Part shown: positions 1,135-62,575 of the stretch, piece by piece
How positions within the stretch are numbered: position 1 is the stretch's first letter
Layout of the letters: the number at the start of each line of letters is the position of its first letter
Source of the DNA: a virus
DNA length: 64,000 nucleotides
Direction: 5' to 3' (one strand)
IMG/VR virus record: IMGVR_UViG_3300050013_000065
Location: 1-64,000 of that record
Position numbers and translations under genes: made by a program
The notes under the pieces: model-generated
What the model was told of the DNA's origin: nothing
The model's input: the letters and a program-made list of their open reading frames with translations, nothing else
The model's database searches: none

Positions 1135-1653
1135 GTGACGGACGTGAGCAATAAAGGATACCGAAAAGATCCAGCCGAAAGATTTTGGAAAAAGGTAGAT
1201 TGTCTTGGAGAGGACGAATGCTGGAACTGGTCAGGGGCCTGCACCCACAATGGATACGGAGTCTTGGGTCCTAATCTAAAAGAAAGGCGCGCCCATCGTC
1301 TATCTTGGACTCTTCATTATGGAGAAATTCCAGATGGGGCGCTAGTTTTGCATTCTTGTGACAATAGGAAATGTGTCAACCCTAAACATCTATTTCTCGG
1401 GACTCCGCTGGAAAACACCGAGGATATGTACGCCAAAGGAAGAGAACAAAACCCAGGACCGAGCGTGATTCAGTACGGAGAAAATGTTCCTTCCGCTAAA
1501 ATATCAACGGAAGAAGCTAGACAGATTCGGTCTCTGTATCGTCCTTACCAAAGAGGGTTGACCAAATCTCTTGCCGAAAAGTTTGGTCTATCTCAAGGCC
1601 AAATTCGTGTCATCGCAACAGGCCGTCAGTGGTCACATTTGAAGGAGGAATAG
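1135..1653 (+). CDS. HNH homing endonuclease (HNH_3-like)
   Basis: CWNWSG..NGYG, AHRLSW, VLHSCDNRKCVNPKHLFLGT..EN motif and C-terminal HTH-like segment. Confidence 0.9.
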   Translation: MTDVSNKGYRKDPAERFWKKVDCLGEDECWNWSGACTHNGYGVLGPNLKERRAHRLSWTLHYGEIPDGALVLHSCDNRKCVNPKHLFLGTPLENTEDMYAKGREQNPGPSVIQYGENVPSAKISTEEARQIRSLYRPYQRGLTKSLAEKFGLSQGQIRVIATGRQWSHLKEE

Positions 1654-5465: not shown

Positions 5466-5598
5466 ACAACCTAGATTTGTTGTATGAGATCAAAAACCGC
5501 CTCGGGATGCTCGACCTCGGTCTCGCCCTTTGTATCCCTTTGCTTGTTCTTAATATGGCTTTTACTGCCATTCTTCTGAACAGAAAGGAGTCCAGATA

Positions 5599-6423
5599 AT
5601 GGACAAACCGACTACGGCGATCCTCTGCCGGGTGAATGCCGGACTCAGGCCGTTCGAGCAGGCGTTGTCCGAAGCGGGGGTTCCGTTTCACTATATCAAC
5701 CGTGCGGGGTTCTTTTCTCAACCAGAAATCCAATCAAGCCTCGCTTATCTCGGAGCCTGTTTGTTCCCAGCTAACTATTTGATTTCAGGAATGTTGCGTT
5801 CGGATTTTCACCCTACTAAGTTCCTTCCGAAGACTAAACTAGCCGCCCGATTTAAGGAGTTGAAAGCCAACGACCCCGAAGTGTCTTACTGGACTCTGAT
5901 TACCAAGGAACCTAGAACGCTGGTCGATCCGAGAAACTTGGAAGCTCTGCAACACTTCTCACAGTTCGTCCACTCTCTGTCTAGATACCGAGACCTTCCC
6001 CCCTCTGAGGCCCTCAAACAGGTGCTCGGAGCTTTGAAGGTTGGAGACCATTTTGCTGAGCAAGAAACCATTGACAATGACCCCTTGCAGAACCTGTCTG
6101 ACTTGATAAAAATGGCAGGTAAGTATCGGTCCATCAAAGAGTTCCTGGATTTTACACGAAGAGTTGCCGCCGCCTCTCGGGCTAAGAAGGGGGTGGCCCT
6201 CGGAACAATCCACAGCGCCAAGGGCCTTCAGTGGCACTCGGTTTTCCTGGTAAGCTGCCAAGAGGGTATTTTACCTCATTCCAAATCTACTGATCTAGAA
6301 GGCGAACGGAACTGCTTTTTTGTGGCGTGTTCACGGGCCGAACAGAAATTGACTGTAACGTACAGTGGACAGCCAAGCTCATTTGTGATACCATACTTGC
6401 AGGTTAATAAGGAGGAAGCATGA
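5599..6423 (+). CDS. UvrD/PcrA-like SF1 helicase, C-terminal half
   Basis: AILCRVN, motif V TIHSAKGLQW..VF, motif VI ERNCFFVACSRAEQKL; own AAAGGAG RBS. Confidence 0.93.
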   Translation: MDKPTTAILCRVNAGLRPFEQALSEAGVPFHYINRAGFFSQPEIQSSLAYLGACLFPANYLISGMLRSDFHPTKFLPKTKLAARFKELKANDPEVSYWTLITKEPRTLVDPRNLEALQHFSQFVHSLSRYRDLPPSEALKQVLGALKVGDHFAEQETIDNDPLQNLSDLIKMAGKYRSIKEFLDFTRRVAAASRAKKGVALGTIHSAKGLQWHSVFLVSCQEGILPHSKSTDLEGERNCFFVACSRAEQKLTVTYSGQPSSFVIPYLQVNKEEA

Positions 6424-10885: not shown

Positions 10886-12766
10886 TTGGTCATAGTGGAT
10901 AATCTGGACGAAATCAAAGAAAACCCGGCGGTTCTGAAAATCTACGGGCAGTACGTGCATGGGTTGAAAAAGGCTGGGAATCTGTATACCGGCTCGTGCC
11001 CTCTTCATCAGGATTCTCATCCGTCGTTTTCGGTTTACCCGGACATGCGTTGGACTTGCTTCTCTGGGGCGGACTGCGGGTCGGGGAACATTTTTCAGCT
11101 CATCGAGCGTGTAGATAAAATCAGTTTCCAAGAGGCCGTAGAAAAAGTGAAAATCGAGATAGGGCAACCAGACTCGTGGAAGAAGGACAAAGAACGTGTC
11201 GAGAGCGTATTCAAGCCCGTGTCCGAAAAGAAAGTCTACAAGACAATTCAACTGAGTCGTATTGCTTCTTTGGAAGAGGCTTTGAAGAACTCCCCAGAAG
11301 CTATCCATTATCTGGACACGCGGGGGATTACACTTGAGACTGCTCAACAGCTAAGACTTGGATTCGTCCAGAATCTGGGGTCCTTAGCGGGAGAAGAAGG
11401 AAAGGATATTGCCGACAAAGGCTGGCTGGCCTTTAACTACCTCGACGGCGATCTTGTCCGGCTAATCAAGTACCGAAGTCTAGTAAGGAAGCGACCGGGT
11501 GGCTTCGCCCGGCAGTTTGGCATGGAGACTGTTCTCTACGGGATCGAGGATATTGATCCTTTTGAGCCTATTTATCTAGTGTCCGGAGAGTTCGACCGGG
11601 CAGTAATGAAACAAGCCGGGTTTCGTGCGGTCAGCCTAGCCTCAGATACGCATAAACCAACTCCCGAACAAAAAGACCAGTTGATGACTGCGAGTATGAT
11701 AATCCTTGCCGGGGATACTGACACCGTCGGTTCCCAGACTATGGATCGTTTGTGGAAAGAGTTTGGAAACCACTCGTACAAACTAACTTGGCCAGACGGC
11801 TCCAAAGATGCCAACGATGTGTTTCTCAACGCCTGCGGACGCGACCTTTCAAAATTCAAGAATCTTGTAGACGAGTTAACGAGTAAGGCTAAGTCACAGC
11901 CGATGCCTTCTGTATATTCCTTGCAGGAAACTATGCGGTCCGGAGATGACGCGGTTCTCTCTGATCACCCAGATAGAATGCGCGCTCCGTGGCACGACGT
12001 GGACACAATGGTGAATATCATGCCGGGGGACGTGGTCGGAATCAATGCCACGAATAGTGGTATGGGCAAGAGCACTTTTGTGTTACAATGGACTTTGTAT
12101 AATGCCAGGAAGTACGGTCGGTCGTTTGTAAACTTCCAAGCCGAAATGCGTCCTGCTGAGATTGCTACAATGGTAACAGCGCAGGTTCTCAGGAAAGATA
12201 GAAATTTTCTGACCGGCTCTGATAAGAAACAGGCCGCGAATGAGTTGGAAGGCGTGGAATATTACGTGGGGTTTGATCCAGTTTTGAATGGCATCAACGC
12301 GGTCCTTGATCTACTTGAGGCTGCTATTAAACGTTTGTCGCCATATGGGGTCGTGTTGGATCACTTCCACCACCTGACCACGGGAATGAACAACGAGACG
12401 CAGGTGCAGACAGCGGCAATGACCCGGATCAAGCAGATAGCTGAGACCTACAAGGTTGTGTTCTTTAACGTGGGTCAGCCCCGGAAGGCAACGCAGCAGA
12501 CAAAGGGTAAGCAGATTCATCTGACAGATGCAAAAGGTTCCGGAGCTTGGGCGGACGCCTCAAACTCAGTGGTTACGATTCACCGAGAACTAAACAAAGC
12601 AGACGACCCCACGATGACTAAGGGCGTATACGAAGATCGTACGCTCGTCAAGTTACTGAAAGGTAGATCAATGGGAACCGGAAACTCGGCTTGCTATCTG
12701 ACATCGTTTGGTGAGTTCGCCAGCTTTGAGCAAATCGATACAAACCACGAAAGTTACGAAGAATAA
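10886..12766 (+). CDS. DNA primase-helicase (CHC2 Zn finger + TOPRIM + DnaB/SF4 helicase)
   Basis: CPLH..HPSF...C....C; SGEFD, AGDTD, KDAND; Walker A SGMGKS; VVLDH; KGSG. Confidence 0.93.
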   Translation: MVIVDNLDEIKENPAVLKIYGQYVHGLKKAGNLYTGSCPLHQDSHPSFSVYPDMRWTCFSGADCGSGNIFQLIERVDKISFQEAVEKVKIEIGQPDSWKKDKERVESVFKPVSEKKVYKTIQLSRIASLEEALKNSPEAIHYLDTRGITLETAQQLRLGFVQNLGSLAGEEGKDIADKGWLAFNYLDGDLVRLIKYRSLVRKRPGGFARQFGMETVLYGIEDIDPFEPIYLVSGEFDRAVMKQAGFRAVSLASDTHKPTPEQKDQLMTASMIILAGDTDTVGSQTMDRLWKEFGNHSYKLTWPDGSKDANDVFLNACGRDLSKFKNLVDELTSKAKSQPMPSVYSLQETMRSGDDAVLSDHPDRMRAPWHDVDTMVNIMPGDVVGINATNSGMGKSTFVLQWTLYNARKYGRSFVNFQAEMRPAEIATMVTAQVLRKDRNFLTGSDKKQAANELEGVEYYVGFDPVLNGINAVLDLLEAAIKRLSPYGVVLDHFHHLTTGMNNETQVQTAAMTRIKQIAETYKVVFFNVGQPRKATQQTKGKQIHLTDAKGSGAWADASNSVVTIHRELNKADDPTMTKGVYEDRTLVKLLKGRSMGTGNSACYLTSFGEFASFEQIDTNHESYEE

Positions 12767-13644
12767 TGACTAAAATTTGTTCGCTATGCCGCAAGGAAAA
12801 ATCTCTAGAGGATTTTCACCGGGACAGTCAAGGCAAGTACGGAAGAAAGTCTAAATGCAAGGACTGCATCGCACAATACATGCTGAGCAGAAAGAATATC
12901 CCCGGAGTGCGCGAGTCCATATATCGCAATAGCAGAGCATACGACCGCAGAAACCCAGAAGCTAGAATGGCAAATTCGGCAAGAGAAAGATCAAAAAGGA
13001 ACGGTACTCTTTGTACTATAGCTAAAAACGAAATAGTAATTCCTGACTTGTGCCCGATATTGGGCATTCCTCTCAAACGTGGAAATCGATCTTCACACGA
13101 TGACGCTCCTAGTTTGGATAGAATTATTCCCGAGGAGGGGTACGTAGCAGGCAACGTGAACGTAGTATCCTACCGGGCCAATCGTCTGAAAAATAATGGA
13201 ACGCCAGAGGAGCACCGTCTTATTGCCGCTTGGATGTCAAATTCAGGGTTTACAAGTCCAACCAAAAGTGAACAGATTTTAGAAAACTCCCAAAAGGAGA
13301 TGTTTAACGCCTCCCGACAACGGGCAAGGAGACTGGGTCTTAATTTTGGAATACAAATAGGAGACATAAAAATCCCACGCGTATGTCCTATATTAGGAAT
13401 TCCACTAGAACCAGGAAAGGGTAGAGGTAGCAGACACGAGGGATCTCCAACACTAGACAGGACTGATCCAACAAAGGGATACATTCAAGGAAACATTTCT
13501 GTTATTTCTTATCGGGCTAATCGCATCAAAAACGACGGCACCGCCGAGGAGCATTTAAAGATTGCGGATTGGATGGACAGTATGTTACAATCCAAAGTGT
13601 TGGATATGAACCATGAAGAGGAGGACCCAAATGGGTTTGAATGA
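12766..13644 (+). CDS. His-Me finger/HNH-type endonuclease with two tandem nuclease domains
   Basis: N-terminal CSLC..CKDC; two copies of CPILGIPL..SP(S/T)LDR..P.GY..GN..V.SYRAN..K. Confidence 0.85.
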   Translation: MTKICSLCRKEKSLEDFHRDSQGKYGRKSKCKDCIAQYMLSRKNIPGVRESIYRNSRAYDRRNPEARMANSARERSKRNGTLCTIAKNEIVIPDLCPILGIPLKRGNRSSHDDAPSLDRIIPEEGYVAGNVNVVSYRANRLKNNGTPEEHRLIAAWMSNSGFTSPTKSEQILENSQKEMFNASRQRARRLGLNFGIQIGDIKIPRVCPILGIPLEPGKGRGSRHEGSPTLDRTDPTKGYIQGNISVISYRANRIKNDGTAEEHLKIADWMDSMLQSKVLDMNHEEEDPNGFE

Positions 13645-16738: not shown

Positions 16739-17093
16739 AACAGTCCGCGTAGAACTCGGAGAAACCGGTCTCCCGATCCGCATATTCCGGGATAAGCAAT
16801 GGTTAAACTACCCTACGGTAGAAATGACCAAGGCCAAAGCGGTGGGGGGAATTCGAAAGCAAGTATTTCGTAGATGTTGGAATCCATTATCTGGAAACTT
16901 CGAATGCGAAAAGTGTGGACGAACAATCACTTGGACTTCTGGAGAAATGAACGAGAAAATCGCGAAGGGTTCTGGTGGGGAAGTAAGTTTGAGCAACTGT
17001 GAAGCGTTATGTCACAGTTGTCACACAGGAAGTCCGGATTCCGCTCACGGAGACCGGAGATGGCAAACAGCAAAATTGAGTCCGAAGGAATAA
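16728..17093 (+). CDS. HNH-like nuclease (catalytic His apparently substituted)
   Basis: CEKCG...EMNEKIAKGSGG..SLSNCEALCHSCH. Confidence 0.75.
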   Translation: MPSKTVRVELGETGLPIRIFRDKQWLNYPTVEMTKAKAVGGIRKQVFRRCWNPLSGNFECEKCGRTITWTSGEMNEKIAKGSGGEVSLSNCEALCHSCHTGSPDSAHGDRRWQTAKLSPKE

Positions 17094-17095
17094 CA

Positions 17096-17614
17096 ATGGA
17101 CGTTCTTAAATACAAATCGGTAATCAAGCAGGTTTTGTCCGAGCTTAAAATCCCCGCAGATCAGAGGGAAGACATGAGCCAGGAGTGTTACGTAGCCTTG
17201 CTTGAAAAGCAGTCTCACATTGAAAAACGGATTGAAGCCAAAGAGGACTACAAATATGTAGCCCAAATCTGTCGGAGAAAGATCATGTATCTTTGGAGGA
17301 CGGGGCAACACCCTCAGAGGACCAAGGAAAACCCGGGGCCGAGGTTGGTGTCTCTTTCTTTGCCCAAGATCATGCACCAAGTAGAAAAGATACCTCAACC
17401 GACCGCCGAAGTTTCGGACGAGGAGCTATACGGAGCGATTGATAGCCTTCCCCTGGATGAATACCGAGTAATTTACAACGTGTTTGTGGATGGGAAATCA
17501 CAGCGAGAGACCGCCGGAGATTTTGGAATCAGCCGCCGACAGGTGGCAAATTTAGCGGATCGCGGGATCAAAAATCTGAAGAAGTATTTTGAGGTAGAAG
17601 ATGGCCAAGATTGA
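17096..17614 (+). CDS. phage sigma70-family (ECF-like) sigma factor
   Basis: REDMSQECYVALLE region-2-like; AIDSLP..EYRVI..F.DGKSQRETA..FGISRRQV region-4 HTH. Confidence 0.82.
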   Translation: MDVLKYKSVIKQVLSELKIPADQREDMSQECYVALLEKQSHIEKRIEAKEDYKYVAQICRRKIMYLWRTGQHPQRTKENPGPRLVSLSLPKIMHQVEKIPQPTAEVSDEELYGAIDSLPLDEYRVIYNVFVDGKSQRETAGDFGISRRQVANLADRGIKNLKKYFEVEDGQD

Positions 17615-18561: not shown

Positions 18562-18730
18562 GAGGTAACATGACCAGGAAAAGACTGACTGTCAAAGAGC
18601 TGTATGAAAAGATGGAGGAGATTCACTCCGCTTTGGACTCCTCCGAAGTTTACCACTTTGGATTGTGGGAGGCGATTGCCGGACTTATGGTAGGACTCTC
18701 AATTGGGTATACTCTTGCGAGGATATTCTA

Positions 18731-18898
18731 GTGAGCCCCGTATACAATTACCAGTGCGTAGAGTGCGGGGAGAAGTTCGAGAAGCTGGTCAAGAAGGACA
18801 CCAAACCTCCCCGATGTCCAACTTGCGACAAACCGACTCAGCAGATTTGGAGTGTACCGGCGGTCGCGGTTTGGAAATGCAGTAAGGGAAGTTTATGA
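18731..18898 (+). CDS. FmdB-family Zn-ribbon protein
   Basis: PVYNYQCVECGEKFE...CPTC. Confidence 0.8.
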   Translation: MSPVYNYQCVECGEKFEKLVKKDTKPPRCPTCDKPTQQIWSVPAVAVWKCSKGSL

Positions 18899-19365
18899 CA
18901 CGAAAAGCAAAGCCGAAGACTAAAGTGCAGCTTGACAAAGCCGCCGACCAGAGACTCCAAAAGACGTATAATATCACTCTTCGAGAGTACGAGGAGATGG
19001 CCAAGAGGAACAATAGATGCTGCTGGGTGAGTGGGAAACCGGCAGGAACCCGTCGTCTGCACGTCGATCACGATCATGCGTGGAAGAAGGTCAAGATCGA
19101 GACCGTCAAGGTAAACGGATTGTGGGCGGCGGCGGCTCTCTACAACGAGAGAGAGTATGTTGGTGTAAATTCCAAAAAGTCTTTGGCGGTTCTCCAAGTG
19201 AAACGTCAACTGCTGCGCGCCAGTGTCCGGGGGTTGCTTTCATATCAAATCAATGCCGGGTTACAAAAATTCGCGGATGATCCGATTCTACTGAGGGCGG
19301 CTGCTGACTACCTCGAAAACTTTCAGAAAGGAAGTCCATTATCTGGACAGGAGAAAAATGACTAA
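18895..19365 (+). CDS. recombination endonuclease VII-family protein
   Basis: YNITL.EY, LHVDHDH, VRGLL...N.GL..F.DDP..LR.AADYL. Confidence 0.88.
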   Translation: MTRKAKPKTKVQLDKAADQRLQKTYNITLREYEEMAKRNNRCCWVSGKPAGTRRLHVDHDHAWKKVKIETVKVNGLWAAAALYNEREYVGVNSKKSLAVLQVKRQLLRASVRGLLSYQINAGLQKFADDPILLRAAADYLENFQKGSPLSGQEKND

Positions 19366-23679: not shown

Positions 23680-24672
23680 GTGGAACAACGGAAAGAACAA
23701 CAGAAGAAATATTTTGTTTACCTAATCACGAACCAGATAAACAAAAAAGTATACGTGGGATTTACCTCGAATTGGAAGAAGAGGTGGAAGGAGCATAATT
23801 TAGAGTCCCAGCGAAATCGAAATGATCAGAGGAATCGGCATCTGTACCATGCTATGCGGATGTATGGTCGCGAGAATTTTTCGTTTTGTCTTCTCTGTTC
23901 TGTAGATGATGAAAAGGAGGCTCTACGTTTAGAACAATACTATATTGAACAGTACGGTTCTAAAAATCCGGACAAGGGGTACAACATGACAGCGGGCGGG
24001 GACGGGGTGCGCGTACTGAGAGGAGATAGCCTAGAGAGAATGAGAAAAGCTGTTTCAGAGAGGATGTCTGTCCCTGAAAATACTCCGAATTACCGAGAAG
24101 ATATTTCGACAGAAGAGATTGTGGAATTGTATGTTATAGAGGGGTTGAACACCGTGGCTATCGGAAAGAAACTTGGAATATATCCGGGTCTAGTTAGTTC
24201 CCGTTTAAAAAGGAAAGGAGTAAAAAGAAGAGGACGCCGGATAGAAATAAATGTTGCTGAAGTGCTCCGCCTTTACGAGATTAAGAAGACGGCGGCGGAA
24301 ATAGGAGAAATATTTGGAGTTAGTAAATACAAAATATTATCTGTCCTAAAAGAACAGGGGATAGACAGGAGGAGGTCCGGGGCCAGAAAAACTACGGAGG
24401 GGAGAAAGGAGAAAAGATGCCCGGGGTGCCAAAACATAAAACTTCTCTCCTTCTTCAATAAGAACAAAAGCTCGCACGATGGGTATTCGAGTTTGTGTAA
24501 GCAGTGTATTTCAGACAGAAACAAGATGAAGTTACGGACTAAAAAGGAGATTGCTCCGGAGCCATGTTCAAGTACCGGAGGAACGTTGGGTCCTTCAGAC
24601 GTTCTTGGGGCTGAAGATTCTTCATCGCCTTCGCTATGTACTTCTTTCTCGTCTGAAGGGTCAGAGGCATAA
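23680..24672 (+). CDS. GIY-YIG homing endonuclease
   Basis: FVYLITN..NKKVYVG, RW.EH, LE..YI, GYNMT.GG, HTH repeats and C-terminal Zn finger. Confidence 0.92.
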   Translation: MEQRKEQQKKYFVYLITNQINKKVYVGFTSNWKKRWKEHNLESQRNRNDQRNRHLYHAMRMYGRENFSFCLLCSVDDEKEALRLEQYYIEQYGSKNPDKGYNMTAGGDGVRVLRGDSLERMRKAVSERMSVPENTPNYREDISTEEIVELYVIEGLNTVAIGKKLGIYPGLVSSRLKRKGVKRRGRRIEINVAEVLRLYEIKKTAAEIGEIFGVSKYKILSVLKEQGIDRRRSGARKTTEGRKEKRCPGCQNIKLLSFFNKNKSSHDGYSSLCKQCISDRNKMKLRTKKEIAPEPCSSTGGTLGPSDVLGAEDSSSPSLCTSFSSEGSEA

Positions 24673-37119: not shown

Positions 37120-37848
37120 ATGAGAGAAATAACAGAAGAAAGATCAAAAGAACTTCAAACCGCAATACACGAGTATGTCGATGGCTTATCTTCGGCTAAG
37201 GTGTGCAAAAAGTACAAAATAGACCACAAAACTTTGGCGAAGATGGTCGTTGAATCCGGACACCACGTTCGAAGTCGTGCAGAAGTGGTTCAGCTCATGT
37301 ATGGGGTTAACCACGCGACGCAAAAGGATGACAGCACTTGGGTAAAAGTGTGTAAAGAGTGTGGGCAAGAAAAATCGGTAGAAGTTTTTCATCCCGACAA
37401 GGAGTATGCAGACGGAAGAGGAAGTATTTGTTACGATTGTAAAAATGCCAAAAGAAGACCTCGCGAACGAACTCGGTACCAAAACGATCCGGAGTACCGA
37501 GATAAAGCCATCGCGGAGTCCAAAAAATACTACGCGGAGCATCCAGAAACTATCAAAGCATATCACATAAAAAGTACGTATGGCTTGGAGTTTGAGGACT
37601 ATACGAAAAAGTTAGAAGAACAAGGAAATTGTTGTGCGGCTTGCGGTGCTACATCTCCTGGAGTAGTGGGGAGAACTTGGCATGTAGATCATGACCATTC
37701 TTGTTGTTCTGGAAAAAAGAAAGCTTGCGGAAAGTGCGTACGAGGTTTGTTGTGTCAACCCTGTAACTTGATACTGGGCATGGCAAAGGATAGTCCTGAA
37801 ACTCTCCGGAGCCTAATTTCTTACTTAGAAAAATACAAGAGAGGCTAA
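37120..37848 (+). CDS. endonuclease VII-family homing endonuclease
   Basis: YGLEFEDY, CAACG, WHVDHDH, CVRGLLC..CN..LG..KD. Confidence 0.92.
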   Translation: MREITEERSKELQTAIHEYVDGLSSAKVCKKYKIDHKTLAKMVVESGHHVRSRAEVVQLMYGVNHATQKDDSTWVKVCKECGQEKSVEVFHPDKEYADGRGSICYDCKNAKRRPRERTRYQNDPEYRDKAIAESKKYYAEHPETIKAYHIKSTYGLEFEDYTKKLEEQGNCCAACGATSPGVVGRTWHVDHDHSCCSGKKKACGKCVRGLLCQPCNLILGMAKDSPETLRSLISYLEKYKRG

Positions 37849-46251: not shown

Positions 46252-46852
46252 ACATTCTCCTATGGCTAATCCAAGCCAAACGGGTTGTCCATTAATCGGA
46301 CTGGTTAAGCAATTTTCTTTGCGTTACGGTGGTTGTTCAGTTTCTTGTACCAAAGCGAATTGACGCCACCCGAAGGGGGTCCGAATTCCTTTTCACACTG
46401 TTCTTCTGTTAGGAACAAAGAACATTCTATCGTTCTCTTCCCGGGCTAGTTGTTCTTTTGACTTCAGAACTTCACGAGGCTTAGTAGTCTCCAAAATAGC
46501 TTCAGCGAGTTTAGCATTTGCTTCTGCGGCGGCGGTTTGGGAGGCGAGCAACTGCTGTTGCATCGAGGCGATTAGCGTGAACAGAGCGTCTGTAGAAATA
46601 GGTGTTACGCGGCTATTGAAAGTCTGAGGGGTTTCCTCAACGGCTTCGGTTTCTTCATTTTGGTTCTTGGGTGGTCTTCCTGCGGGCATACATTCTCCTA
46701 TGGCTAATCCAAGCCAAACGGGTTGTCCATTAATCGGACTGGTTAAGCAATTTTCTTTGCGTTACGGTGGTTGTTCAGTTTCTTGTACCAAAGCGAATTG
46801 ACGCCACCCGAAGGGGGTCCGAATTCCTTTTCACACTGTTCTTCTGTTAGGA
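45981..46852. repeat. tandem duplication, 434 bp x2 (45981-46414 and 46419-46852)
   Basis: apparently identical copies at offset 438. Confidence 0.93.
46393..46689 (-). pseudogene. truncated duplicate of 45643-46251
   Basis: first about 90 aa identical, then a junction-derived tail. Confidence 0.8.
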
Positions 46853-51123: not shown

Positions 51124-51576
51124 CACTTTTACGGAATTTTTATCCAAAAACCAGGAGAGTACTCATAGACAACCCCTCGGTGTGCTAGGAGCGGTCGAAA
51201 ATCATCAGGAAACCTAACCAACTTGTCCATGAATTATTTCAACTTCCAAAAGAGATTAGCTACGTGCATCAAGCCGGGCTCCCCAAATCCAGACCATGTT
51301 TCTTTCGCAAAATCCGAACCGTTCATTCGAAATAGCACAAACTCGGCCAGAGTGTTTTCAGGAGGAGGAGACTTCCAATATTTAGTTAGTCCCTCTAAGT
51401 TTGGGGGAAACTCTGATTTTTCAACCACGTGTTTGTCCATTATTCGGACTCCTTCTTCGGAGTGATATTCCAGACCCATCCAGAATTGCAAGCAGCCAAG
51501 TGCTCCAAAGGAATCTGGTTGGGCGGGTAGATCACACCCTCTTTGTAGATTCTCGGAACTCCATCAGTTAGCCGCT

Positions 51577-51821: not shown

Positions 51822-54800
51822 TTACGATGACGACGTTTCTGACTGCAAACGCTGCTTGTTGCGTCCATTATCTGGACGGGTCGATCATTTCTGTCGGCCT
51901 CATACGGTTTCGTTTTCCGTATGGTCGGACTGTTGCATACTCTTTCGAGTCTTCTTCGCTCAGTCTCTCACGGTCTCTTTCGAGTTCCGCCTCGTCACCA
52001 TTTCAGGGTTCGAGTCAATCAGAAGAAGTTTAGGCTCCGCCGCTGCTTTAACGGAGTGTCATCGTGCTTCCCGGCACATGTTACTCATTCTAAACATCTT
52101 AGAACGGAGTAGATCGTTTCCGTCTACTTCATACGGTTTTTGTTTCCCGTATGCTCGGACTATTGCATGTCCATTATCTGGACCCGCTTCGCTTAGTCTC
52201 TCAGCCTGCTTTCGCTTGGCCCTCCTTGGCATTTCAGCGTCGGAGTCAATCAGAAGTGGTTTATACTGCGCCCGTATGTTAACGCAGTGTGTTGGTGTAG
52301 CGCACATTGTAAGAAACCCATCCGCCAATTTGGCGAGCTGGATCGCTCACGCTTCCCTGCTCAGGAGCACTCTGAATAAACAGCTTATAGTTCTTCGAGC
52401 CGTCATTCGGGTTCTTCCCGCGTATGTTACTCATTCTAAACATCTTAGAACGGAGTAGATCGTTTCCGTCTACTTCATGCAGTTACTATTTCTGCATGTC
52501 CAGACTATTGCATCGTCCATTATCTGGACGCCACTTCGCTTAGTCGTTCACGGTCTCTTTCGAGTTCCGCCTCGTCACCATTTCAGGGTTCGAGTCAATC
52601 AGAAGTGGTTTTCCTACGCAGATTACGCTGCGAGGTCCCCGGAGTTAAGGAACACAGAGAAGATAGCATCGTCGCCGAAAATGTAACTATTGTAATACGT
52701 ATTGCCTGAAATAGTCACAGTGGGGGCAGTGGATGTCTGTTTGAAAGTAACACCCGCGAACGAGATGGTATCCTCATTCTTAGGCAGTTCAAACAGCATG
52801 TTGCGCATCTCGTCGCTTCTCTTGATGATGTCCGACAATCCGTTGAAGGAGGTGTCGTTCAAAACATCTCTGACAACATTAGGTAATTTTGTTAATCGGA
52901 GTTTTTACTTCCATCCGTGGTGTTCCGAGATTAGAACGCAGGGTGTTGCCTCGTTCAATAAATCCCCGGTCTCCCATGGGTGACCCACTCCGTACAGGTC
53001 AGTCACCTGATCTGTTTTCTTACAGTCGCCTGTAAGTTCGGACTCTATCTTCGCCGTCCATTTTTCGGACGGGTCCGGCGTATTAGTCTCTACGGGTTTG
53101 CCTTTGCGATTCAATTCTTTACAAAGAGAAATAATCTCATCTCTGCGCTCCATGCTTCCGAATCTATTCAGTTGCACATATTCTAACAACAGAGCCGCTT
53201 GTCTTTGTTTTATCTTCAGATGAGGTATTATGCCCTTCAACAGAACTTCTTTGCTTTCGTTTCCGAGAGCAACCCAGGTCCATTGGTTCTTCCACTTTTT
53301 CTTAGCCATAGGTCTGAAATAAACGGTACCCCCAAATTTCTCCAATAACCAATCTAGAGGTTCTTTGGTGGTAAGACTCATGGATATTCGGGAGTCCCGG
53401 TGTATGTAGGGCTTTCCCTTTGTGGATATAGAACGACCGCGAGATTTTGTTTTGTGAGACGTGGCCGCTATGTGGCCTTCTCCGTCTATTAGTCCCGCTG
53501 CGTACGCAAAATCTACTTCTGAAATAATTGAATCAGGCATCTTCCCTCGGTATTGTCTGGAATTTCACTACAACAAGTCTATCACAAACGACAGAAATTG
53601 TCAACCAGAGATTCACCGATTTAGCCAGATTTTATATCCACCCTATATACGGCTTACGCCGCTTGGTGATAGTTTTGATAATGGATAATTCCACCAAATT
53701 TGTTGTCCACGAGAGGACGAGCGTTGACGCTTACCAGCGACTGAGCAGCAGACCGGATGTTATTCGCGGTCAGATACGAGCCGTTCGCAAGCTGGATGTT
53801 GACCAAGCTATCGACCGCAACAGCCGAGTCAGCGGTAAGCTGGACCAAGGAGTTGAGGGTGAGGGCTAGGCGGTAGTTTAGTTCGTTCCTTTTTGTTACC
53901 GTCCAGATAACGGGCGGGGCTGGTCATTTCTGCCAGCCTCTATACATCGCTGCATAGAGCGGACTATCGCATCACCCCGAAGGGCGTCCTCTTGTTTAGT
54001 CTCTACTGCTGCCCAGCCGAAGCCTGCTTGCAGTCTGTTGTCTCCTTGCGGAGAGTTCCAGCTTAATTAAAGAGGATTTATACTGGCCCATTGGGTTAAG
54101 CCAGATTCTGCAATAAACCCGGGTCATCTATCGCGACATCCAACGCTAGGTCAGATGAATTGATGAAGTCGGCATATTGCCCGCAATGTGTTTAGGCAAC
54201 CAACATCACTGTTGGTGCGCTCTCGCAGTCGCCTACGAGGTCAGACTCTATCATCTGTCCGTTATCCGGACAGGCAACCGTATTAGTCGTTAGGGATATT
54301 CCGCGATGATTTAGTACTCGAAATTTTTTGATAACTTCTCGGGTCTCATCATCAGAAAGATTTCTTCGGTTTCGAAACCAGTCAAGTAGGAGAATAGCTT
54401 GCTCTCGTTTAGTAACCATATAAGGCAAAATAGCTAAGAGAGTAGTTTCCAAGAATCGGGTCGGTAGTACCCAATTTCCTAGTTCACGATGTTCTCTTTT
54501 GGAAGAGCTTACGCTGCCGCCAAACTTTTCAAGAAGGAAATCGAACACTCTCATGTCCGTATTGGGAAGCTGAATCTTGGGGTCGAAAGAACGTTTTGAT
54601 TCATACAAACTCAAAGTTCCTTCGGCGTCTAAAATTCCGGCTAAATATTGATAGTCGTCCTTGCTCGCTGTAACTTCTTCTACATCTCTGTGCATTCTTT
54701 TTACTGGCTCAAAAAATCCGTTCCTAAAAGAAACGTAATCAGACAGTTCTTTTCTAGCATCAGAATTGTGGTAGCTTCTCCCCCCCAATCCAATAAATTG

Positions 54801-56494
54801 AACTATCGTTTCTCCTTGTCTCCGTTTCAACTTCAGAAGAGGGGAAACCATTTTCAATAGATTAAGTTGGTGTTCAGAATTACTCACATACCAATGATGA
54901 TTTGGTTTACGATTTGGACGCTTATCCTGTGTCGTGTAAAATTGTCCTCCGAAAGTATCGGATAGCCATTTTACCGTAGGCAGGTGCGTGGTCGCTACTT
55001 CTACCGTTGCATCATAGTTAATGTAGTTTTGTTCGTGCGGGTGGACTGCTATTCCCAAAGAACCATCGCCGTCTATTAAACCGGCTAGGTAGTTCCATCT
55101 TGCGGGGCTTATTTTTGTCTTATCTTTCAAACGGGTTTCCTCGGTATTGTCTACTCCAACTACTATACTACTACACCAAGTAGTATTTTGTCAAGCAGAT
55201 GTTCACCGATTTAGGCTGCTTTTTCGACCACCGATATATTCATGGTCGCTACGATCTTGTTGCTGGACTCGCTGATGGGCGATCCAACGGTTCCCTCAGC
55301 AGCCTGATTTAGGTTTGCTGCGAGCAGAGCGTAGGTGAAGACTTTTGTGTTTAGGCCGTCAGTATCTCTACTGGGGCGCTCTCATCGTCGCCGATGAGAA
55401 CAGGCTGTATCTTCGGTAGGTTGAGATAACGAATTACATCGCACAACTTCTTGCGGAGTTCCCTATTCGGAGAACTAGGAAGACGAACAAGCTCCAAAGC
55501 GATCTTGGCTTGCGGTCTCTTGATTCTTAGGTAGGGAAGAACTTGGAGGAGGAATTGTTCCCGCCTTTCTTTTCCCGTCAACTCCCAAGTATAAAACTCC
55601 TCGGTGTTGTCGTGGGCCTTTGTCGTATGAAACCAACCTCCGTAGAGATCGAGAAACATTTGGACAAGGGGGCGGTAGTTGTTTCCCATCCGAATTCGTA
55701 GCATCGGTTTATTGTCTGGGGTGAAGGCGGCAGATACGCAACCTTCTCCGTCCATAATTCCGGCTATATACGCATGTGTTAGTTTATCTTCAACTTTTCC
55801 GTCTAGCGTCTCAGTCGTTAGGCATTCCCTGTTCTTCATTCCGCGAATCGTTTCCATAAGCTCTTGGCGTCTGGAAGGATTCTGTGCGTCTCCCAAGCTA
55901 TAGAACTCCTGAAGTACGAGAGCCTCAGCTTTTTTGATGCGAAGATACGGAAGAATGTATGAGAGGAATTCGGGGGCAAACTTTTTGCCGTTGAGGTTCC
56001 ACTGGTACCAAACCTGCCCTTTCTTAGGGGTGTGTTTGGTAAAGAAGCCACCGAAAGTTCTAACCAGCCATTTGACTATCGGCAGATTAGTATTACTCAA
56101 AACAATGCGTGGTTGGTAGTTGGTGCAGGGGCCGTTCGGTTTAACTGTTGGTTTGTAAATCGAAAAGCAACCCTCGGCGTCCATCAGTCCGGCTACGTAT
56201 GCTTTTGTTCGTTCTCTCATAGGGTCTTTGCTCGGTATTGTCTAGTTGACAAGATAAGAATACCACACCAGCATTCTATTGTCAATAGGGTTCCACCGAT
56301 ATAGCTAGATTTTAATTCAGCACTATTCAATACTGAATCTGGTTTCCCTGACGGAGCGGCAGCGGACGCTGCTTCGTCATGCTAAGGAAGGGTGTTTGTG
56401 CCTTCAGGTTAGGAATTGCTTCACGTTCATAGTGAATAGCTACGAGGTTGGGCAAAGCGCCCGAAGTCACAATTGATGCAGGTGAGTAACTCAT
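51822..56494 (-). CDS. major capsid protein, N4-gp56-like, 327 aa, 8 exons: 56494-56332, 55341-55242, 54183-54099, 53887-53681, 52883-52648, 52420-52282, 52074-52051, 51851-51822
   Basis: exons sum to 984 nt with no internal stop; motifs LP..GNQIQF, EG, ATIGQYAD, AIDDP, IIHP....D, AGV.F, IFG.DA, DP.RQ.G.WV.Y; AAAGGAG RBS; directly downstream of the scaffold gene. Confidence 0.92.
51852..52050 (-). mobile_element. group I intron 7 (199 nt, ORF-less)
   Basis: P1 CTCCGT/GCGGAG; in-frame TAA start; compensated P7 GACTG/CAGTC; ends in G. Confidence 0.88.
52075..52281 (-). mobile_element. group I intron 6 (207 nt, ORF-less)
   Basis: P1 ACTGCGT/GCGCAGT; in-frame TAA start; GAGACTA and AATAGTCC; ends in G. 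Confidence 0.88.
52421..52647 (-). mobile_element. group I intron 5 (227 nt, ORF-less)
   Basis: P1 GTTCCT/GGGGAC; ACGACTA and AATAGTCT; ends in G; restores CT+C codon. Confidence 0.88.
52884..53680 (-). mobile_element. group I intron 4 (797 nt) with LAGLIDADG ORF; terminal nucleotide A
   Basis: P1 ATCCAT/GTGGAT; P10 TAGG/CCTA; GAGACTA and AAGATAGAGTCC. Confidence 0.85.
52905..53540 (-). CDS. single-motif LAGLIDADG homing endonuclease (intron 4)
   Basis: YAAGLIDGEG; FGG, IPHLKIK..QA. Confidence 0.92.
   Translation of the reverse strand: MPDSIISEVDFAYAAGLIDGEGHIAATSHKTKSRGRSISTKGKPYIHRDSRISMSLTTKEPLDWLLEKFGGTVYFRPMAKKKWKNQWTWVALGNESKEVLLKGIIPHLKIKQRQAALLLEYVQLNRFGSMERRDEIISLCKELNRKGKPVETNTPDPSEKWTAKIESELTGDCKKTDQVTDLYGVGHPWETGDLLNEATPCVLISEHHGWK
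53888..54098 (-). mobile_element. group I intron 3 (211 nt, ORF-less)
   Basis: P1 CTGGCT/GGCCAG; starts with in-frame TAA; GAGACTA and GATAGTCC; ends in G. Confidence 0.88.
54184..55241 (-). mobile_element. group I intron 2 (1058 nt) with LAGLIDADG ORF
   Basis: P1 CGACCAT/GTGGTCG; P3 GCAGCC/GGTTGC; ACGACTA and GATAGAGTCT; ends in G. Confidence 0.9.
54192..55130 (-). CDS. double-motif LAGLIDADG homing endonuclease (intron 2)
   Basis: YLAGLIDGDG and YLAGILDAEG. Confidence 0.93.
   Translation of the reverse strand: MKDKTKISPARWNYLAGLIDGDGSLGIAVHPHEQNYINYDATVEVATTHLPTVKWLSDTFGGQFYTTQDKRPNRKPNHHWYVSNSEHQLNLLKMVSPLLKLKRRQGETIVQFIGLGGRSYHNSDARKELSDYVSFRNGFFEPVKRMHRDVEEVTASKDDYQYLAGILDAEGTLSLYESKRSFDPKIQLPNTDMRVFDFLLEKFGGSVSSSKREHRELGNWVLPTRFLETTLLAILPYMVTKREQAILLLDWFRNRRNLSDDETREVIKKFRVLNHRGISLTTNTVACPDNGQMIESDLVGDCESAPTVMLVA
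55342..56331 (-). mobile_element. group I intron 1 (990 nt) with LAGLIDADG ORF
   Basis: P1 ATTCAGT/GCTGAAT with U.G; P3 TCTAGC/GCTAGA; ACGACTG and AAGATACAGCC core strands; ends in G. Confidence 0.9.
55351..56220 (-). CDS. double-motif LAGLIDADG homing endonuclease (intron 1)
   Basis: YVAGLMDAEG and YIAGIMDGEG; LPYLRIK twice. Confidence 0.93.
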   Translation of the reverse strand: MRERTKAYVAGLMDAEGCFSIYKPTVKPNGPCTNYQPRIVLSNTNLPIVKWLVRTFGGFFTKHTPKKGQVWYQWNLNGKKFAPEFLSYILPYLRIKKAEALVLQEFYSLGDAQNPSRRQELMETIRGMKNRECLTTETLDGKVEDKLTHAYIAGIMDGEGCVSAAFTPDNKPMLRIRMGNNYRPLVQMFLDLYGGWFHTTKAHDNTEEFYTWELTGKERREQFLLQVLPYLRIKRPQAKIALELVRLPSSPNRELRKKLCDVIRYLNLPKIQPVLIGDDESAPVEILTA

Positions 56495-56521: not shown

Positions 56522-57697
56522 TTAGCGCCGACTTTGAGCACGTGCCCGACGAATAGCATTGAGGGTGTTCGCAACTTCTTCGTCTGTCATGTTCTCAAAA
56601 TCCTCGGCTGAGGGTGCGTTCGGAGACTCCGGAGGTTTGACGGGTGTTACGTCATTCCTGCCAATTCCTAGTGCCGCTCTCGGGCGCGTAACCTGACTTA
56701 CAATCCGTGAGTCGGGACGCGGCGCAGGTGCCGGTTCGTGTTGAACCGCTACCGGCGGAGGGGGTTCCACCGTTTCCGGTGAAGGTGTTTTGGGTTGCCT
56801 TGGTGCCTGAATCATCAAACCATCGTTGTTCAGGTCTTGGAAGGCTTCCTCAAGATTTTCGGCTGTGTAGTTTCCGGTGGAGAGTAGATTATTGAATACC
56901 GCTTCTTCATCTCCCTTTCGGATTGATTCACCGAGTTTGAACTTCGCTAGCCACTGAAGTAGCAGGTTGAAGTTCTGAAAATTTGTGTCCGCATAATAGT
57001 CGGGGTTATTCGCCAAGAAGGTTTTATTTGCCTGCTCGGCAGTAAGCTGATTGGCCGCGTACGATCCTTGCTTTGCTCCCTGCTGGGCGAGGTTCAGGAC
57101 TTGGTCCATAGTCACCCCGCGAGTTTTTTGGAGTAAGAAGTCGTTGGCGGCTGCTGGATCTGACTCCCACAAAGTCCGGTATTCAAAAATCTCGTCTGCG
57201 GTGAGTTGCCGGACAGGAGACGGCTGAGGGGTCTGTGTTTGTGCTACTGGCTTCGCGGGAATAGCTCCGAACTTGATCTTGGCATTCTGCTCCCGAATCT
57301 TCTTGGTAGCATTTGCCTGAGCCTTTAGAACTTCCAGAATCAACTTGTTCTTGGTAGCTCCTTTGTAGACTTGGGCGCTTCCCGCGCAACCTACGACCGA
57401 ACCAACCCACACTCCTTTGTCTTTACTCAGGACTAGTTGGGTACCATCTTCGAGGTCCATTGTTTCTGGTTCTTCTGGTTCCTCGGGGGGTGGGGGCGGA
57501 CCTGCTACAGGAGGAGTCTCGATAATTTCCGGGTCTAGGTTTTCCTGAGATGTGAGAACTGGATCTTGGTCATTAATATCTTCGTCGAGGTTGGGAAGAT
57601 CGGGCATATTCCAATCTACGTTGTTTGCGAATGGGTCGGGGCTTCCGTCAGAGTTCAGGAGCCAGGGGTCAGATACAGGCTTACTCATGTTGTTCAT
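56522..57697 (-). CDS. putative capsid scaffolding protein
   Basis: acidic Pro-rich N-terminus, helical middle, C-terminal FENMTDEE; immediately upstream of the capsid gene. Confidence 0.7.
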   Translation of the reverse strand: MNNMSKPVSDPWLLNSDGSPDPFANNVDWNMPDLPNLDEDINDQDPVLTSQENLDPEIIETPPVAGPPPPPEEPEEPETMDLEDGTQLVLSKDKGVWVGSVVGCAGSAQVYKGATKNKLILEVLKAQANATKKIREQNAKIKFGAIPAKPVAQTQTPQPSPVRQLTADEIFEYRTLWESDPAAANDFLLQKTRGVTMDQVLNLAQQGAKQGSYAANQLTAEQANKTFLANNPDYYADTNFQNFNLLLQWLAKFKLGESIRKGDEEAVFNNLLSTGNYTAENLEEAFQDLNNDGLMIQAPRQPKTPSPETVEPPPPVAVQHEPAPAPRPDSRIVSQVTRPRAALGIGRNDVTPVKPPESPNAPSAEDFENMTDEEVANTLNAIRRARAQSRR

Positions 57698-58028
57698 TCC
57701 TCTTGATATAATCCAATATCAACGGGTAGGTGTTTAAGGAAAAAGTATACGTTATTTCTTAGTGGAATTGTCCATTATTCGGACTTTCAGCCAATGTTTG
57801 TGGAAGTACGAGTTATCCAAGCTTGGCCGGTGGCCCAGGACCAATCACCAACGTACGGCTGCGGGTATCCGGGCCAAGGCTGAATATACGGAGAGGATAG
57901 TGGGTTCTTTCTACCACAACATGGGCAATACCCACAATTGGGGCAAACGTGTTGCGTCTGCTGATTAGGTTCCCCTCCGCACGAAAGTTGTGTATATGTG
58001 CTTGCTTGTCCTACGAGATTCTCGTCCA

Positions 58029-60496: not shown

Positions 60497-62575
60497 TTAT
60501 AGATTCCCGCCGAATCCGGAACTACCTGTGTTTGGCTGGCCTGTTAATACATCTGGCTCAACGGCTCGTTTGAATGATTCGCGCAGCACGTCACGCGCGC
60601 TCCGGGCAATATTTTCGCTGTCTGCTTGTTCGGCTTGTAGTTGTGCCTTCTGCGCCAACAGAGCCTGTTGCTGCTGGAACTTGACTTGCATTGCCCCACT
60701 TTGACTCTTCTGCTGTTGGCGTTGTAGGTCTTCTGGGGTCATATCGACGATTACATCGTTCTGGTTACGGAACTCAGAGGCTTCGAACCACATCCTACAG
60801 ATTTCGTTTACGTCTATCTTTTTACCTTCCATAGCTAGCTGTTCCACCACGGAGGGATTGGCCAAGAATTGACTTAGGAGAGGAAGACCCTGTGACATGT
60901 TTCTCCTCGTAGTCATTTTGCTCCCGGCCAATACGGCGAACTTCACCTTGGCATTGAGGACCGAAACAAGATCGCCCCCATTTTGCACGTACTCGTGTTT
61001 TAGTTCATCCGAAAGGATAAATTCCAACTGCGAATAGGGCAACATCATCTGGTTCATTTCAGAAACGTCATACAAATAAGGCACCAGCACCTGATTAGCC
61101 AGTTTATCGATACAATCGGAGATGATATTTGACGCGCCCTGTCCGAGTAGTGAAGCTCCGGCGGAGGATCGGGCGAGGTTAGAGTGCCCAGCCGACCCAG
61201 CATTTCCCTGAGAGGTAATTGGGTTAGCGCCCGACACAGAATCCACCCTCTGCTGAGACATGGCAAAGAGCTGGTTGGCTTCTTGTACTGGATCTCCGAA
61301 CTTCAGAGGTTGTAGATCGCCTTGGGCGTCCACTTCGATCATTTTGTTGGGGCCGATGCGGATGCTTTGTGTCGGGACCGACTTTCCTTTTACACGAACC
61401 ATAGGAGCGTTCAACTTCAGGTTCGCGATGTTCATCATCAGGTTTGTAATACCGGCTTGGACACGCTGTTCTGTGCCGATCAGCCGACCAAGACCGATAG
61501 ACCAGAAAGCTCCGGGCTGGTCCCACCAACCGATACTCAGGAACGGGATTTTACCGTAGGCGTTCTGTCCGTTGTAGATGACCACCTTTTTCTGGATCAC
61601 TACGATTAGGGTTTTGTTGTCCCACCGTTCGAGGACTTCCAGAGGTTGCTGGAAAGGATCGACCGTGGTAGCTTCCCACGGAGATTCCGCGCGCGCGTCC
61701 CACAAAGGATTGCGTCCGCCTTCTTGCTGGGGATTGGATTCGACGGGTTCCTTCGGGGGGAGAAACAACTCAAGCATCTTCTCGCGAGATGGAATATCGT
61801 AGCCTTCACGGTCGCGCAGCTTGTCAATATCGTCCCAGGTCATATACCGGCGGCGGACAATATATTTAGCTTTGCGGATGTCTGGGACTTCGAGACCTGG
61901 GTCCACCAGAATTTCCCGAAGATTGACTATGTGCTCAAAAGTAGGTCTGTCGATTACTTCTTCGATCTCTTCTACTTCGAGTTCGTCATCAGATATTGAG
62001 GTCTCAGGAGCGCCGGGAATAGTGCTTGGAATTTTGACAACTGGATTCTTCCGCTTGACGATCTTTCGAGTCTTGGTGTATTTTTCCCACCCTTCGGCGA
62101 AAATGGCTGTTCCGAACAGTAGACAGTTCATCAAACCAAGACGGAGTTCTTCTCGGAAGTTGATGTCTTCCAGTTGATAGCCGAGAAGGGCCGACACGGC
62201 GCGCGCACACTGCGCTGAGGTTCCGCTCCGTTCTTGAACCATAAAAGGGGGATTTTCGTAGAACAATCCGGCCAAAAGCTGGGGGTTGATGCCGTTGACC
62301 GCCGTAGCCACCGTGAAGAAATTTACCGAAGAAGCTTCAATTGAGGTACCCGGCCAGAAGTTCGGGGCATAAATCGAAGTATAGAGGTCTCGGGAAGAAA
62401 CCCAGGCCATTATCCAGCTTTTTCTCTGCTCATCGGATTCTGCCCTCTCCGTATCTTGGACTACGAGAGCAAGAGACGCGGGGTCTCCGAAAGTCCCGGT
62501 ATGCAGAAACTCTAACGCTTCGTCTTTTGTTATGTCCTGGTGCGGGTCGCGGACTGGTTCTGGAAGCTGGCTCAT
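60497..62575 (-). CDS. portal protein (P22/T7-like podovirus type)
   Basis: 692 aa; LLFGTAI, EILVDP, VLERW, YGKIPF, FWSIGLG.LI...Q, Q-rich barrel C-terminus. Confidence 0.85.
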   Translation of the reverse strand: MSQLPEPVRDPHQDITKDEALEFLHTGTFGDPASLALVVQDTERAESDEQRKSWIMAWVSSRDLYTSIYAPNFWPGTSIEASSVNFFTVATAVNGINPQLLAGLFYENPPFMVQERSGTSAQCARAVSALLGYQLEDINFREELRLGLMNCLLFGTAIFAEGWEKYTKTRKIVKRKNPVVKIPSTIPGAPETSISDDELEVEEIEEVIDRPTFEHIVNLREILVDPGLEVPDIRKAKYIVRRRYMTWDDIDKLRDREGYDIPSREKMLELFLPPKEPVESNPQQEGGRNPLWDARAESPWEATTVDPFQQPLEVLERWDNKTLIVVIQKKVVIYNGQNAYGKIPFLSIGWWDQPGAFWSIGLGRLIGTEQRVQAGITNLMMNIANLKLNAPMVRVKGKSVPTQSIRIGPNKMIEVDAQGDLQPLKFGDPVQEANQLFAMSQQRVDSVSGANPITSQGNAGSAGHSNLARSSAGASLLGQGASNIISDCIDKLANQVLVPYLYDVSEMNQMMLPYSQLEFILSDELKHEYVQNGGDLVSVLNAKVKFAVLAGSKMTTRRNMSQGLPLLSQFLANPSVVEQLAMEGKKIDVNEICRMWFEASEFRNQNDVIVDMTPEDLQRQQQKSQSGAMQVKFQQQQALLAQKAQLQAEQADSENIARSARDVLRESFKRAVEPDVLTGQPNTGSSGFGGNL

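Follow-up and report, generated by a model that had tools for sequence, protein, structure and literature searches.

Why do the peripheral hairpins of introns in a single phage gene spell out a short sequence that is scattered over the whole genome of that phage? The question is raised by the major capsid gene of IMG/VR virus record IMGVR_UViG_3300050013_000065, a 75,483-bp virus contig with 49.5% G+C, the first 64 kb of which are hereafter called the window. This gene is interrupted by seven group I introns, and six of them hold one copy each of the 15-mer GTCCAGATAATGGAC, a quasi-palindrome made of a 5-bp stem and a GATAA loop. The DNA runs that contain the window are peat, permafrost and freshwater metagenomes, and its source is an uncultured peat phage. 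In all six introns the motif is the P8 or the P9.2 hairpin of the ribozyme; among related introns these two hairpins are variable, and the version of the motif that they carry matches that of the surrounding genome far more often than after permutation. Taking the explanation as a whole, we lean with modest confidence toward a dispersed cis element, a docking site at the DNA level, that has been written into the free P8 and P9.2 hairpins of the introns.

The motif as P8 or P9.2 of the capsid introns

The gene and its introns are listed below; the last hairpin before the 3' splice site is named P9.2 after the RNAalifold consensus of 41 introns.

51822-56494, minus strand: major capsid gene (N4-gp56 family), 8 exons and 7 group I introns, spliced product of 327 amino acids (aa)
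55342-56331, minus strand: intron 1, 990 nucleotides (nt), LAGLIDADG endonuclease open reading frame (ORF) at 55351-56220, without the motif
54184-55241, minus strand: intron 2, 1058 nt, LAGLIDADG ORF at 54192-55130, motif P8 at 54255-54273
53888-54098, minus strand: intron 3, 211 nt, without an ORF, plain UUCG hairpin as P8 at 53973-53986, flipped motif as P9.2 at 53899-53917
52884-53680, minus strand: intron 4, 797 nt, LAGLIDADG-like ORF at 52905-53540, motif P8 at 53054-53072, last base A
52421-52647, minus strand: intron 5, 227 nt, motif P8 at 52514-52530, unrelated P9.2 hairpin at 52432-52452
52075-52281, minus strand: intron 6, 207 nt, motif P8 at 52169-52183, unrelated P9.2 hairpin at 52086-52106
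51852-52050, minus strand: intron 7, 199 nt, plain P8 ACTC-GAAA-GAGT at 51939-51950, motif P9.2 at 51862-51878

The initial annotation had located the motif in these six introns, four times between P3' and J8/7 and twice in the 3' P9 region, sometimes with extra flanking pairs, and each of these statements was confirmed. Three copies are exact, those of introns 5 (52515-52529), 6 (52169-52183) and 7 (51863-51877), with one C-G pair added to the hairpin in introns 5 and 7. Intron 2 holds GTCCGGATAACGGAC (54257-54271), with G-C in place of the A-T closing pair, in the hairpin CTGTCCG-GATAA-CGGACAG; intron 3 holds a copy in the opposite orientation (53901-53915) with two mismatches and one C x A stem mispair; and intron 4 holds the weakest copy, GTCCGAAAAATGGAC (53056-53070), with three mismatches, in the hairpin CCGTCCG-AAAAA-TGGACGG. 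One or two extra flanking pairs are gained by the copies of introns 3, 4, 5 and 7. The motif hairpin is P8 in introns 2, 4, 5 and 6, where it lies between P3' and J8/7 and abuts J8/7, and introns 3 and 7 have it as their terminal hairpin, P9.2, 13 and 11 nt from the 3' splice site. The Rfam group I model places the hairpins of introns 2 and 4 at its own P8 (with scores below threshold), and minimum-energy folding of whole introns gives the motif a hairpin of its own in introns 5, 6 and 7.

The array also contains natural swaps, as intron 7 combines a GAAA-capped P8 with a motif P9.2, introns 5 and 6 a motif P8 with an unrelated P9.2, and intron 3 a UUCG P8 with a flipped-motif P9.2. Intron 1, which has no copy, has P7-P3' at 55801-55821 and J8/7 at 55403-55413; about 390 nt of ORF, half of the endonuclease gene, fill the P8 position, and there is no short P8. 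The six copies are well above chance: the intron DNA (3.69 kb) holds 6 copies against 2.4 expected from the rest of the genome (P=0.03), and the four introns without an ORF (0.84 kb) hold 4 against 0.54 expected (P=0.002).

The intron borders were set by colinearity with an uninterrupted 327-aa homolog, P0007. Searching the capsid region by tblastn with uninterrupted homologs recovered eight colinear exon pieces, one of which (79 aa) matches relatives named "N4-gp56 family major capsid protein," some of them uninterrupted and 327-329 aa long, and the joined product is 327 aa long and colinear with P0007. Each exon junction is preceded by U, six of the seven introns end in G, and P1 helices of 6-7 bp ending in U-G can be read directly from the sequence in introns 1, 2, 3, 4, 6 and 7. 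At the 5' splice site of intron 5 (52645-52650) the final U of the exon pairs with A (TTCCT/AGGAA), not G, and the P1 loop is 32 nt long with its own small hairpin. Intron 4 ends (52884-52890) in AAAATTA before exon CCT, so its last base is A instead of the near-universal G; its junction is fixed by P1 (TATCCAT/GTGGATA, with U-G) together with a 4-bp P10 (CCTA/TAGG), and its orthologs at codon 185 in L295-L298 likewise end in A (ATTA before CC).

No match in the window reached the gathering threshold of Rfam RF00028 (50 bits), the model scoring best on intron 4 (27.1 bits), followed by intron 2 (17.7 bits); the capsid introns are therefore compact, divergent group I introns. A hidden Markov model built from small family members (nhmmer) matches all seven and finds no other intron of the capsid family elsewhere in the genome. 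RNAalifold on 41 family introns supports a conserved core with P7, P9, P9.1 and P9.2, and 21 of the 24 pairs show double changes; covariation by alignment column failed at P8, where the register varies, and per-sequence hairpins were taken instead. In metatranscriptome contigs from peat and permafrost, exons are joined precisely where the junctions of introns 1, 2 and 3 were predicted, and at that of intron 4 in a variant strain. As these contigs are several percent divergent from the window and intron-less alleles, indistinguishable from spliced RNA, exist as DNA, the joins are compatible with splicing and are no proof of it. By eye, a TTGACA-N17-TAnnnT-like sequence is also seen just 5' of the ORF in each endonuclease-bearing intron (56270-56300, 55170-55200 and 53590-53620), and these may be internal promoters.

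Hairpin turnover and genome-specific versions of the motif

Relatives were collected by an IMG/VR scan with P0007, which gave 80 capsid loci. Their capsid genes carry introns at more than 20 codon positions, with at least 8 introns in L293 (genome G008); intron-rich loci include L293, L276 and L286, and micro-exons of 24-50 nt are common. Of 63 distinct small introns, 61 belong to one sequence family. Alignment of the P7-P3'-P8-J8/7 block shows P8 as a short hairpin without a fixed sequence, as a rule with a 4-5 bp stem and a GAAA, GCAA or UUCG cap, and the motif occupies it in a subset. Both P8 and P9.2 are therefore ordinary variable hairpins, mostly capped by GNRA or UUCG loops. Among the non-redundant introns we found 39 motif copies, of which 23 are P8, 15 are P9.2 and 1 lies elsewhere, and about half of the related introns are without the motif.

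Introns at the same site are 70-93% identical in their ribozyme parts, yet their P8 differs. Depending on the genome, one and the same intron carries an ordinary tetraloop hairpin, the motif in either orientation or a different version of it. The site of intron 5, codon 264, illustrates the range: across genomes its P8 takes the form of the GATAA motif, a GAATAA or an ATAAAA variant, a flipped ACAAAA-type copy or a plain UUCG hairpin. TCC...GGA is already present in several P8 stems of relatives. Tandem C-G pairs in P8 can act as a tetraloop receptor in group I tertiary contacts, and such a role would explain both the frequency of these stems and their easy conversion. The view that the introns adopted the phage's own signature at positions tolerant of a stem-loop, as had been suggested initially, is thus strongly supported by the variable P8 and P9.2, by the same-site swaps and by the matching of versions described below. 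The long domestication proposed along with it is possible and is not required, since turnover at the two hairpins looks fast.

We then compared the intron copies with the motif of their own genomes. Whole-contig counts of the motif range from 28 to 68, against at most 1 for a control pattern, and each genome favors its own version:

the genome studied here and G007: GTCCAGATAATGGAC, with GATAA
G008 (L293): GTCCAGAAAATGGAC, with GAAAA
L289: GTCCAAATAATGGAC, with AATAA
G009 (L269): TTCCAGATAATGGAA, with a TTCC/GGAA stem
L262: TTCCGGATAATGGAA
L300 and L294: GTCCAGTTAATGGAC

Of the 39 intron copies, 21 have an exact counterpart in the flanks of their own contig, where permuting contigs gave 5.8 +/- 2.7 and at most 16 in 5000 runs; this statistic is, like the other P values, indicative and partly non-independent, as the contigs of the relatives are kin to one another. 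The weak copy of intron 4 calls for some caution: in G004 (L290, 96 kb) the intron at the same site (codon 185) has a P8 of similar architecture, AATCCGCAAAACGGATT, although this relative uses that very sequence as its own genome-wide motif (GTCCGCAAAACGGAC; 28 hairpins with a GTCCG/CGGAC stem). The genome-wide version of G012 is TCCGGAAACCGGA. The versions of G004 (also L303-L307) and G012 were missed by pattern searches built on the motif of one genome. The initial annotation had reasoned that the same hairpin should not be common in related introns of genomes lacking the motif, and it was not: the canonical motif is present in 38 of 81 introns and in 0 of 13 from contigs without it (Fisher test; canonical version only).

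The direction of transfer is likely from genome to intron, because some motif-bearing genomes, namely G006 (L226), L227 and L228, are rich in the motif and have an uninterrupted capsid gene. G001, G002 and G003 have neither the motif nor capsid introns, and G005 has no clear motif, its three introns having unrelated P8 and P9.2 hairpins. Copies embedded in coding sequence keep their codon positions between orthologs with no more than about 50% identity around them (VQIMD of the sliding clamp, VRIMD of the gene after it, SPNNGL of a 1328-aa protein), a comparison with some ascertainment bias as the loci were fetched through the motif, and these copies are substitutions rather than 5-codon insertions. 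Most motif-bearing relatives also have a copy between genes, about 1.25 kb upstream of the capsid gene, in the local version and in two cases flipped. The motif-rich genomes without capsid introns, the shared coding sites and the shared intergenic site together indicate an old element kept by selection, whose version drifts genome-wide and which the introns acquire secondarily.

Within the window there are 38 matches at up to two mismatches, against 0.13 expected, and the 75.5-kb genome has 52 at up to three mismatches, in both orientations; the density is about 0.6 copies per kb, and the commonest variants are G-U-compatible (GTCCG...TGGAC). By a crude classification over three genomes, about 44% of the copies (73/167) lie at gene boundaries and the remainder within ORFs, where they occupy every frame that creates no stop. 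Some copies lie 0-13 nt upstream of a Shine-Dalgarno sequence. At least 120 stretches of bacterial genomes contain the exact 15-mer, with a single match each among the matches listed; therefore, the motif is not a host repeat. A literature search with the motif strings gave no match.

Several copies overlap the ends of genes. The ATG or GTG of the motif is the start codon of seven predicted genes (5590, 23495, 31218, 37062 and 59356 in the window; 70345 and 72567 in the genome), and its TAA sometimes stops the upstream gene, giving a TAATG overlap. One of these starts belongs to a UvrD-like helicase split over two ORFs (N-terminal 3877-4914, C-terminal 5599-6423), the second of which begins at the ATG within the copy at 5590-5604; the gap of about 680 nt contains small ORFs, and nhmmer found no capsid-family intron in it. 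Two variants GTCCGATTAATGGAC at 46287-46301 and 46725-46739, 438 nt apart, have identical 10-nt flanks on both sides and are probably part of a longer duplicated leader. In L225, L264 and L274 a variant (GTCCAGCTAATGGAC or ATCCAGCTAATGGAT) overlaps the last capsid codons, its TAA being the capsid stop; this copy is absent in the window (51822-51840), where about 30 nt separate the intron 7 copy from the capsid stop codon downstream. The copies nearest to the array are the following:

57770-57784, minus strand: nearest copy upstream, ahead of the scaffold-like gene, at a site orthologous in relatives
51435-51449, minus strand: nearest copy downstream, its TAA being the stop codon of a small ORF

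Around the array, the minus-strand gene order is portal (60497-62575), a 391-aa scaffold-like gene (56522-57697) and a short ORF starting at 56494. Searches of GenBank phages by blastn and tblastn gave no close relative, and the single informative GenBank match is the portal, distantly like that of an Acidobacteria phage. Free-standing nuclease genes are abundant in the window (1135-1653, 12766-13644, 18895-19365, 23680-24672 and 37120-37848); the types found are HNH_3, GIY-YIG and three endonuclease VII-like, one of them an endonuclease VII/HNH double, plus the three LAGLIDADG of the introns.

Possible action of the motif at the DNA or RNA level

A docking site at the DNA level for a putative phage factor fits these data best. 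The 15-mer would be a cis element dispersed over the genomes of the lineage, in a slightly different version in each, kept by selection on the DNA and most likely bound by a phage-encoded sequence-specific factor. The capsid introns would be selfish DNA that arrived without the motif, and two peripheral hairpins of their ribozymes, P8 and P9.2, would tolerate any sequence that forms a short stem-loop. There, the motif of the genome would repeatedly have replaced an ordinary tetraloop hairpin, usually plus one or two closing pairs, in P8 stems that often already had TCC...GGA. In the RNA it would simply serve as the P8 or P9.2 stem-loop and be neutral for splicing. In agreement with action on DNA, deep-coding copies have no strand preference (45 sense, 49 antisense). 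Flipped copies turn up everywhere, and one orthologous site between genes differs among genomes in version and even in orientation. Changes in the stem are symmetric (A-T to G-C; G-C to T-A), which either base pairing or a dimeric reader would produce.

Several results weigh against a DNA docking site. The spacing of the sites is near random (coefficient of variation 0.77-0.97), which does not support regular spacing and gives no sign of a tiling array, and the bare 5-bp stem is weak (-5.5 kcal/mol as RNA). Sense copies outnumber antisense ones at gene boundaries (49:24) and in introns (32:7), which leaves room for a role at the RNA level; the excess at boundaries can be explained by use of the TAA and ATG of the motif, and that in introns by a ribozyme preferring a GNRA-like purine loop. 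The initial class of "motif-free" genomes was too strict, given the versions of G004 and G012. Pfam and PHROGs scans of about 60 ORFs, many of them without annotation, revealed no ParB, no Y1 (RAYT) transposase and no obvious repressor, and a sigma-r4 protein (17009-17614), at first seemingly confined to motif-bearing genomes, was dropped as a candidate factor as a syntenic sigma-r4 ORF occurs in motif-free G001.

Among other candidates, a 215-aa protein near 73.5 kb is present in motif-free genomes too. A comparison of gene presence and absence between two motif-rich and two "motif-free" contigs was confounded by divergence, the "free" G004 having its own version. A Zn-ribbon protein (18665-18898) is a weak idea for the factor.

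The motif could instead work as RNA, as a boxB-like hairpin bound by a phage protein in mRNAs, near ribosome sites and in intron RNA, affecting processing, translation or antitermination and possibly intron folding or splicing. We consider this unlikely, while keeping it as a live rival. The sense bias in non-coding contexts, the many copies just ahead of a Shine-Dalgarno sequence or supplying the start ATG, the extra closing pairs acquired in introns and the prevalence of G-U-compatible variants would all follow from it, and the RNA hairpin, weak as it is, is stable enough to form. Yet the antisense copies, about 40% of the total and half of those deep in coding sequence, would present a UUAUC loop, seven of the copies in introns are flipped, intron 1 and about half of the related introns do without the motif, motif-rich relatives do without capsid introns, and the ORF scans identified no RNA-binding protein. 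The same observations bear on the proposal of the initial annotation that a motif-binding factor links the array to capsid splicing: with half of the related introns lacking the motif, 7 of 39 copies flipped into a different RNA loop, uninterrupted capsid genes in motif-rich genomes and no strand preference in deep-coding copies, a specific link to splicing is unlikely.

Comparably low credence goes to the other live rival, in which the motif spreads or is homogenized by mutation without a selected function, as a selfish micro-palindrome copied from master copies by hairpin-to-hairpin template switching or short-patch conversion, with P8 and P9.2 as preferred targets. It would account for versions homogenized within each genome, for orientation flips at orthologous sites, for hairpins turning into the motif without change of length next to partly decayed look-alikes in P9.2, and for enrichment in hairpin-forming, unconstrained DNA; the richness of the genome in nucleases, with three endonuclease VII homologs, also speaks for it. 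Against it, exact copies kept at the same codons of orthologs about 50% identical in protein point to purifying selection on the DNA motif, target-site duplications and insertion footprints are absent, coding copies being substitutions, and no transposase was found. An active, template-directed overwriting of short hairpins by the master 15-mer of the genome, in either orientation, which would stamp incoming introns at P8 or P9.2 soon after arrival, seems to us a little less likely still. Very improbable, and already largely refuted, is that the intron hairpins have no relation to the dispersed motif, being either ancestral features of these introns or resemblances by chance: the TCC...GGA stems of several relatives and the three mismatches of the intron 4 copy speak for it, but three exact 15-mers occur within 0.6 kb of intron RNA, no permutation reached the observed matching of versions, orthologous introns have plain tetraloop hairpins, and the canonical motif is absent from all 13 introns of contigs that lack it.

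In these introns a dispersed genome signature has probably been written into invading selfish ribozymes, and we found no description of this for phage introns in the literature. Match or mismatch of the motif version could be used as a marker for the residence time of an intron and for its transfer between phages. The introns also provide a natural mutagenesis series, in which P8 and P9.2 of compact introns accept a foreign hairpin of 15-19 nt in either orientation, and they expose a fast-evolving genome-wide cis element in peat and permafrost phages with capsid introns at more than 20 sites. If the overwriting process were true, it would be a new homogenizing mechanism at the DNA level, and the version in an intron would record its residence time in the genome.

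Comparison with known systems

The boxB of phages lambda and P22 is an RNA hairpin of 15 nt whose 5-bp stem is capped by a GNRA-like pentaloop (GAAAA in lambda, GACAA in P22); it is present once or twice per genome, in the sense orientation only, within nut sites. The peat-phage motif is likewise a 15-nt hairpin, with a GNRA-like pentaloop in its sense orientation only (GATAA in its own genome, GAAAA in G008); unlike boxB, it has about 50 copies in both orientations. With REP/RAYT systems and ParB, KorB or Noc sites it shares the many copies of a short palindrome in genome- or lineage-specific versions, and docking sites of the Noc/KorB type also lie inside genes. Here, in contrast, no RAYT or ParB gene was found in the scanned ORFs, about half of the copies lie within ORFs whereas REPs are extragenic, and the center of the motif is asymmetric and conserved, unlike that of REP- and ParB-type palindromes.

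The stoperators of Cluster A mycobacteriophages number about 30 copies of a 13-14-bp motif over a genome of about 50 kb, and related phages have different versions, which follow a binding protein that co-evolves with them (PMC6550527, PMC9283540); most are in one orientation relative to transcription (PMC6550527). The peat-phage motif resembles them in copies far above chance and in lineage-specific versions. It differs in having no predominant orientation (45:49 deep in coding sequence, 49:24 at boundaries), in being a quasi-palindrome with half of its copies inside ORFs, and in that no repressor was recognized in about 60 ORFs; no stoperator has been reported inside intron hairpins.

Palindromic elements of fungal mitochondria occupy peripheral loops of introns. 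These optional palindromic or GC-cluster elements are short hairpin repeats in intergenic or permissive DNA of genomes rich in group I introns (PMC4478555), and double-hairpin elements of mitochondria are cited in PMC7218506. Like them, the peat-phage motif is present or absent at orthologous sites. Unlike it, they are 30-50 bp or longer, inserted rather than substituted, and regarded as mobile; here, there is no insertion footprint or gain of length, the motif replaces a hairpin of similar size, and coding copies come without 5-codon indels. A genome-specific version written into P8 or P9.2 is not described for the mitochondrial elements. Finally, as in other multi-intron phage genes (Twort orf142; the Cluster J capsid intron, PMC3706429), introns of the self-splicing type, some with homing endonucleases, lie in phage structural genes. 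The peat phage differs from those cases in its seven introns in one capsid gene, with at least 8 in L293 and more than 20 insertion sites family-wide, and in peripheral hairpins that carry the dispersed motif of the host genome.

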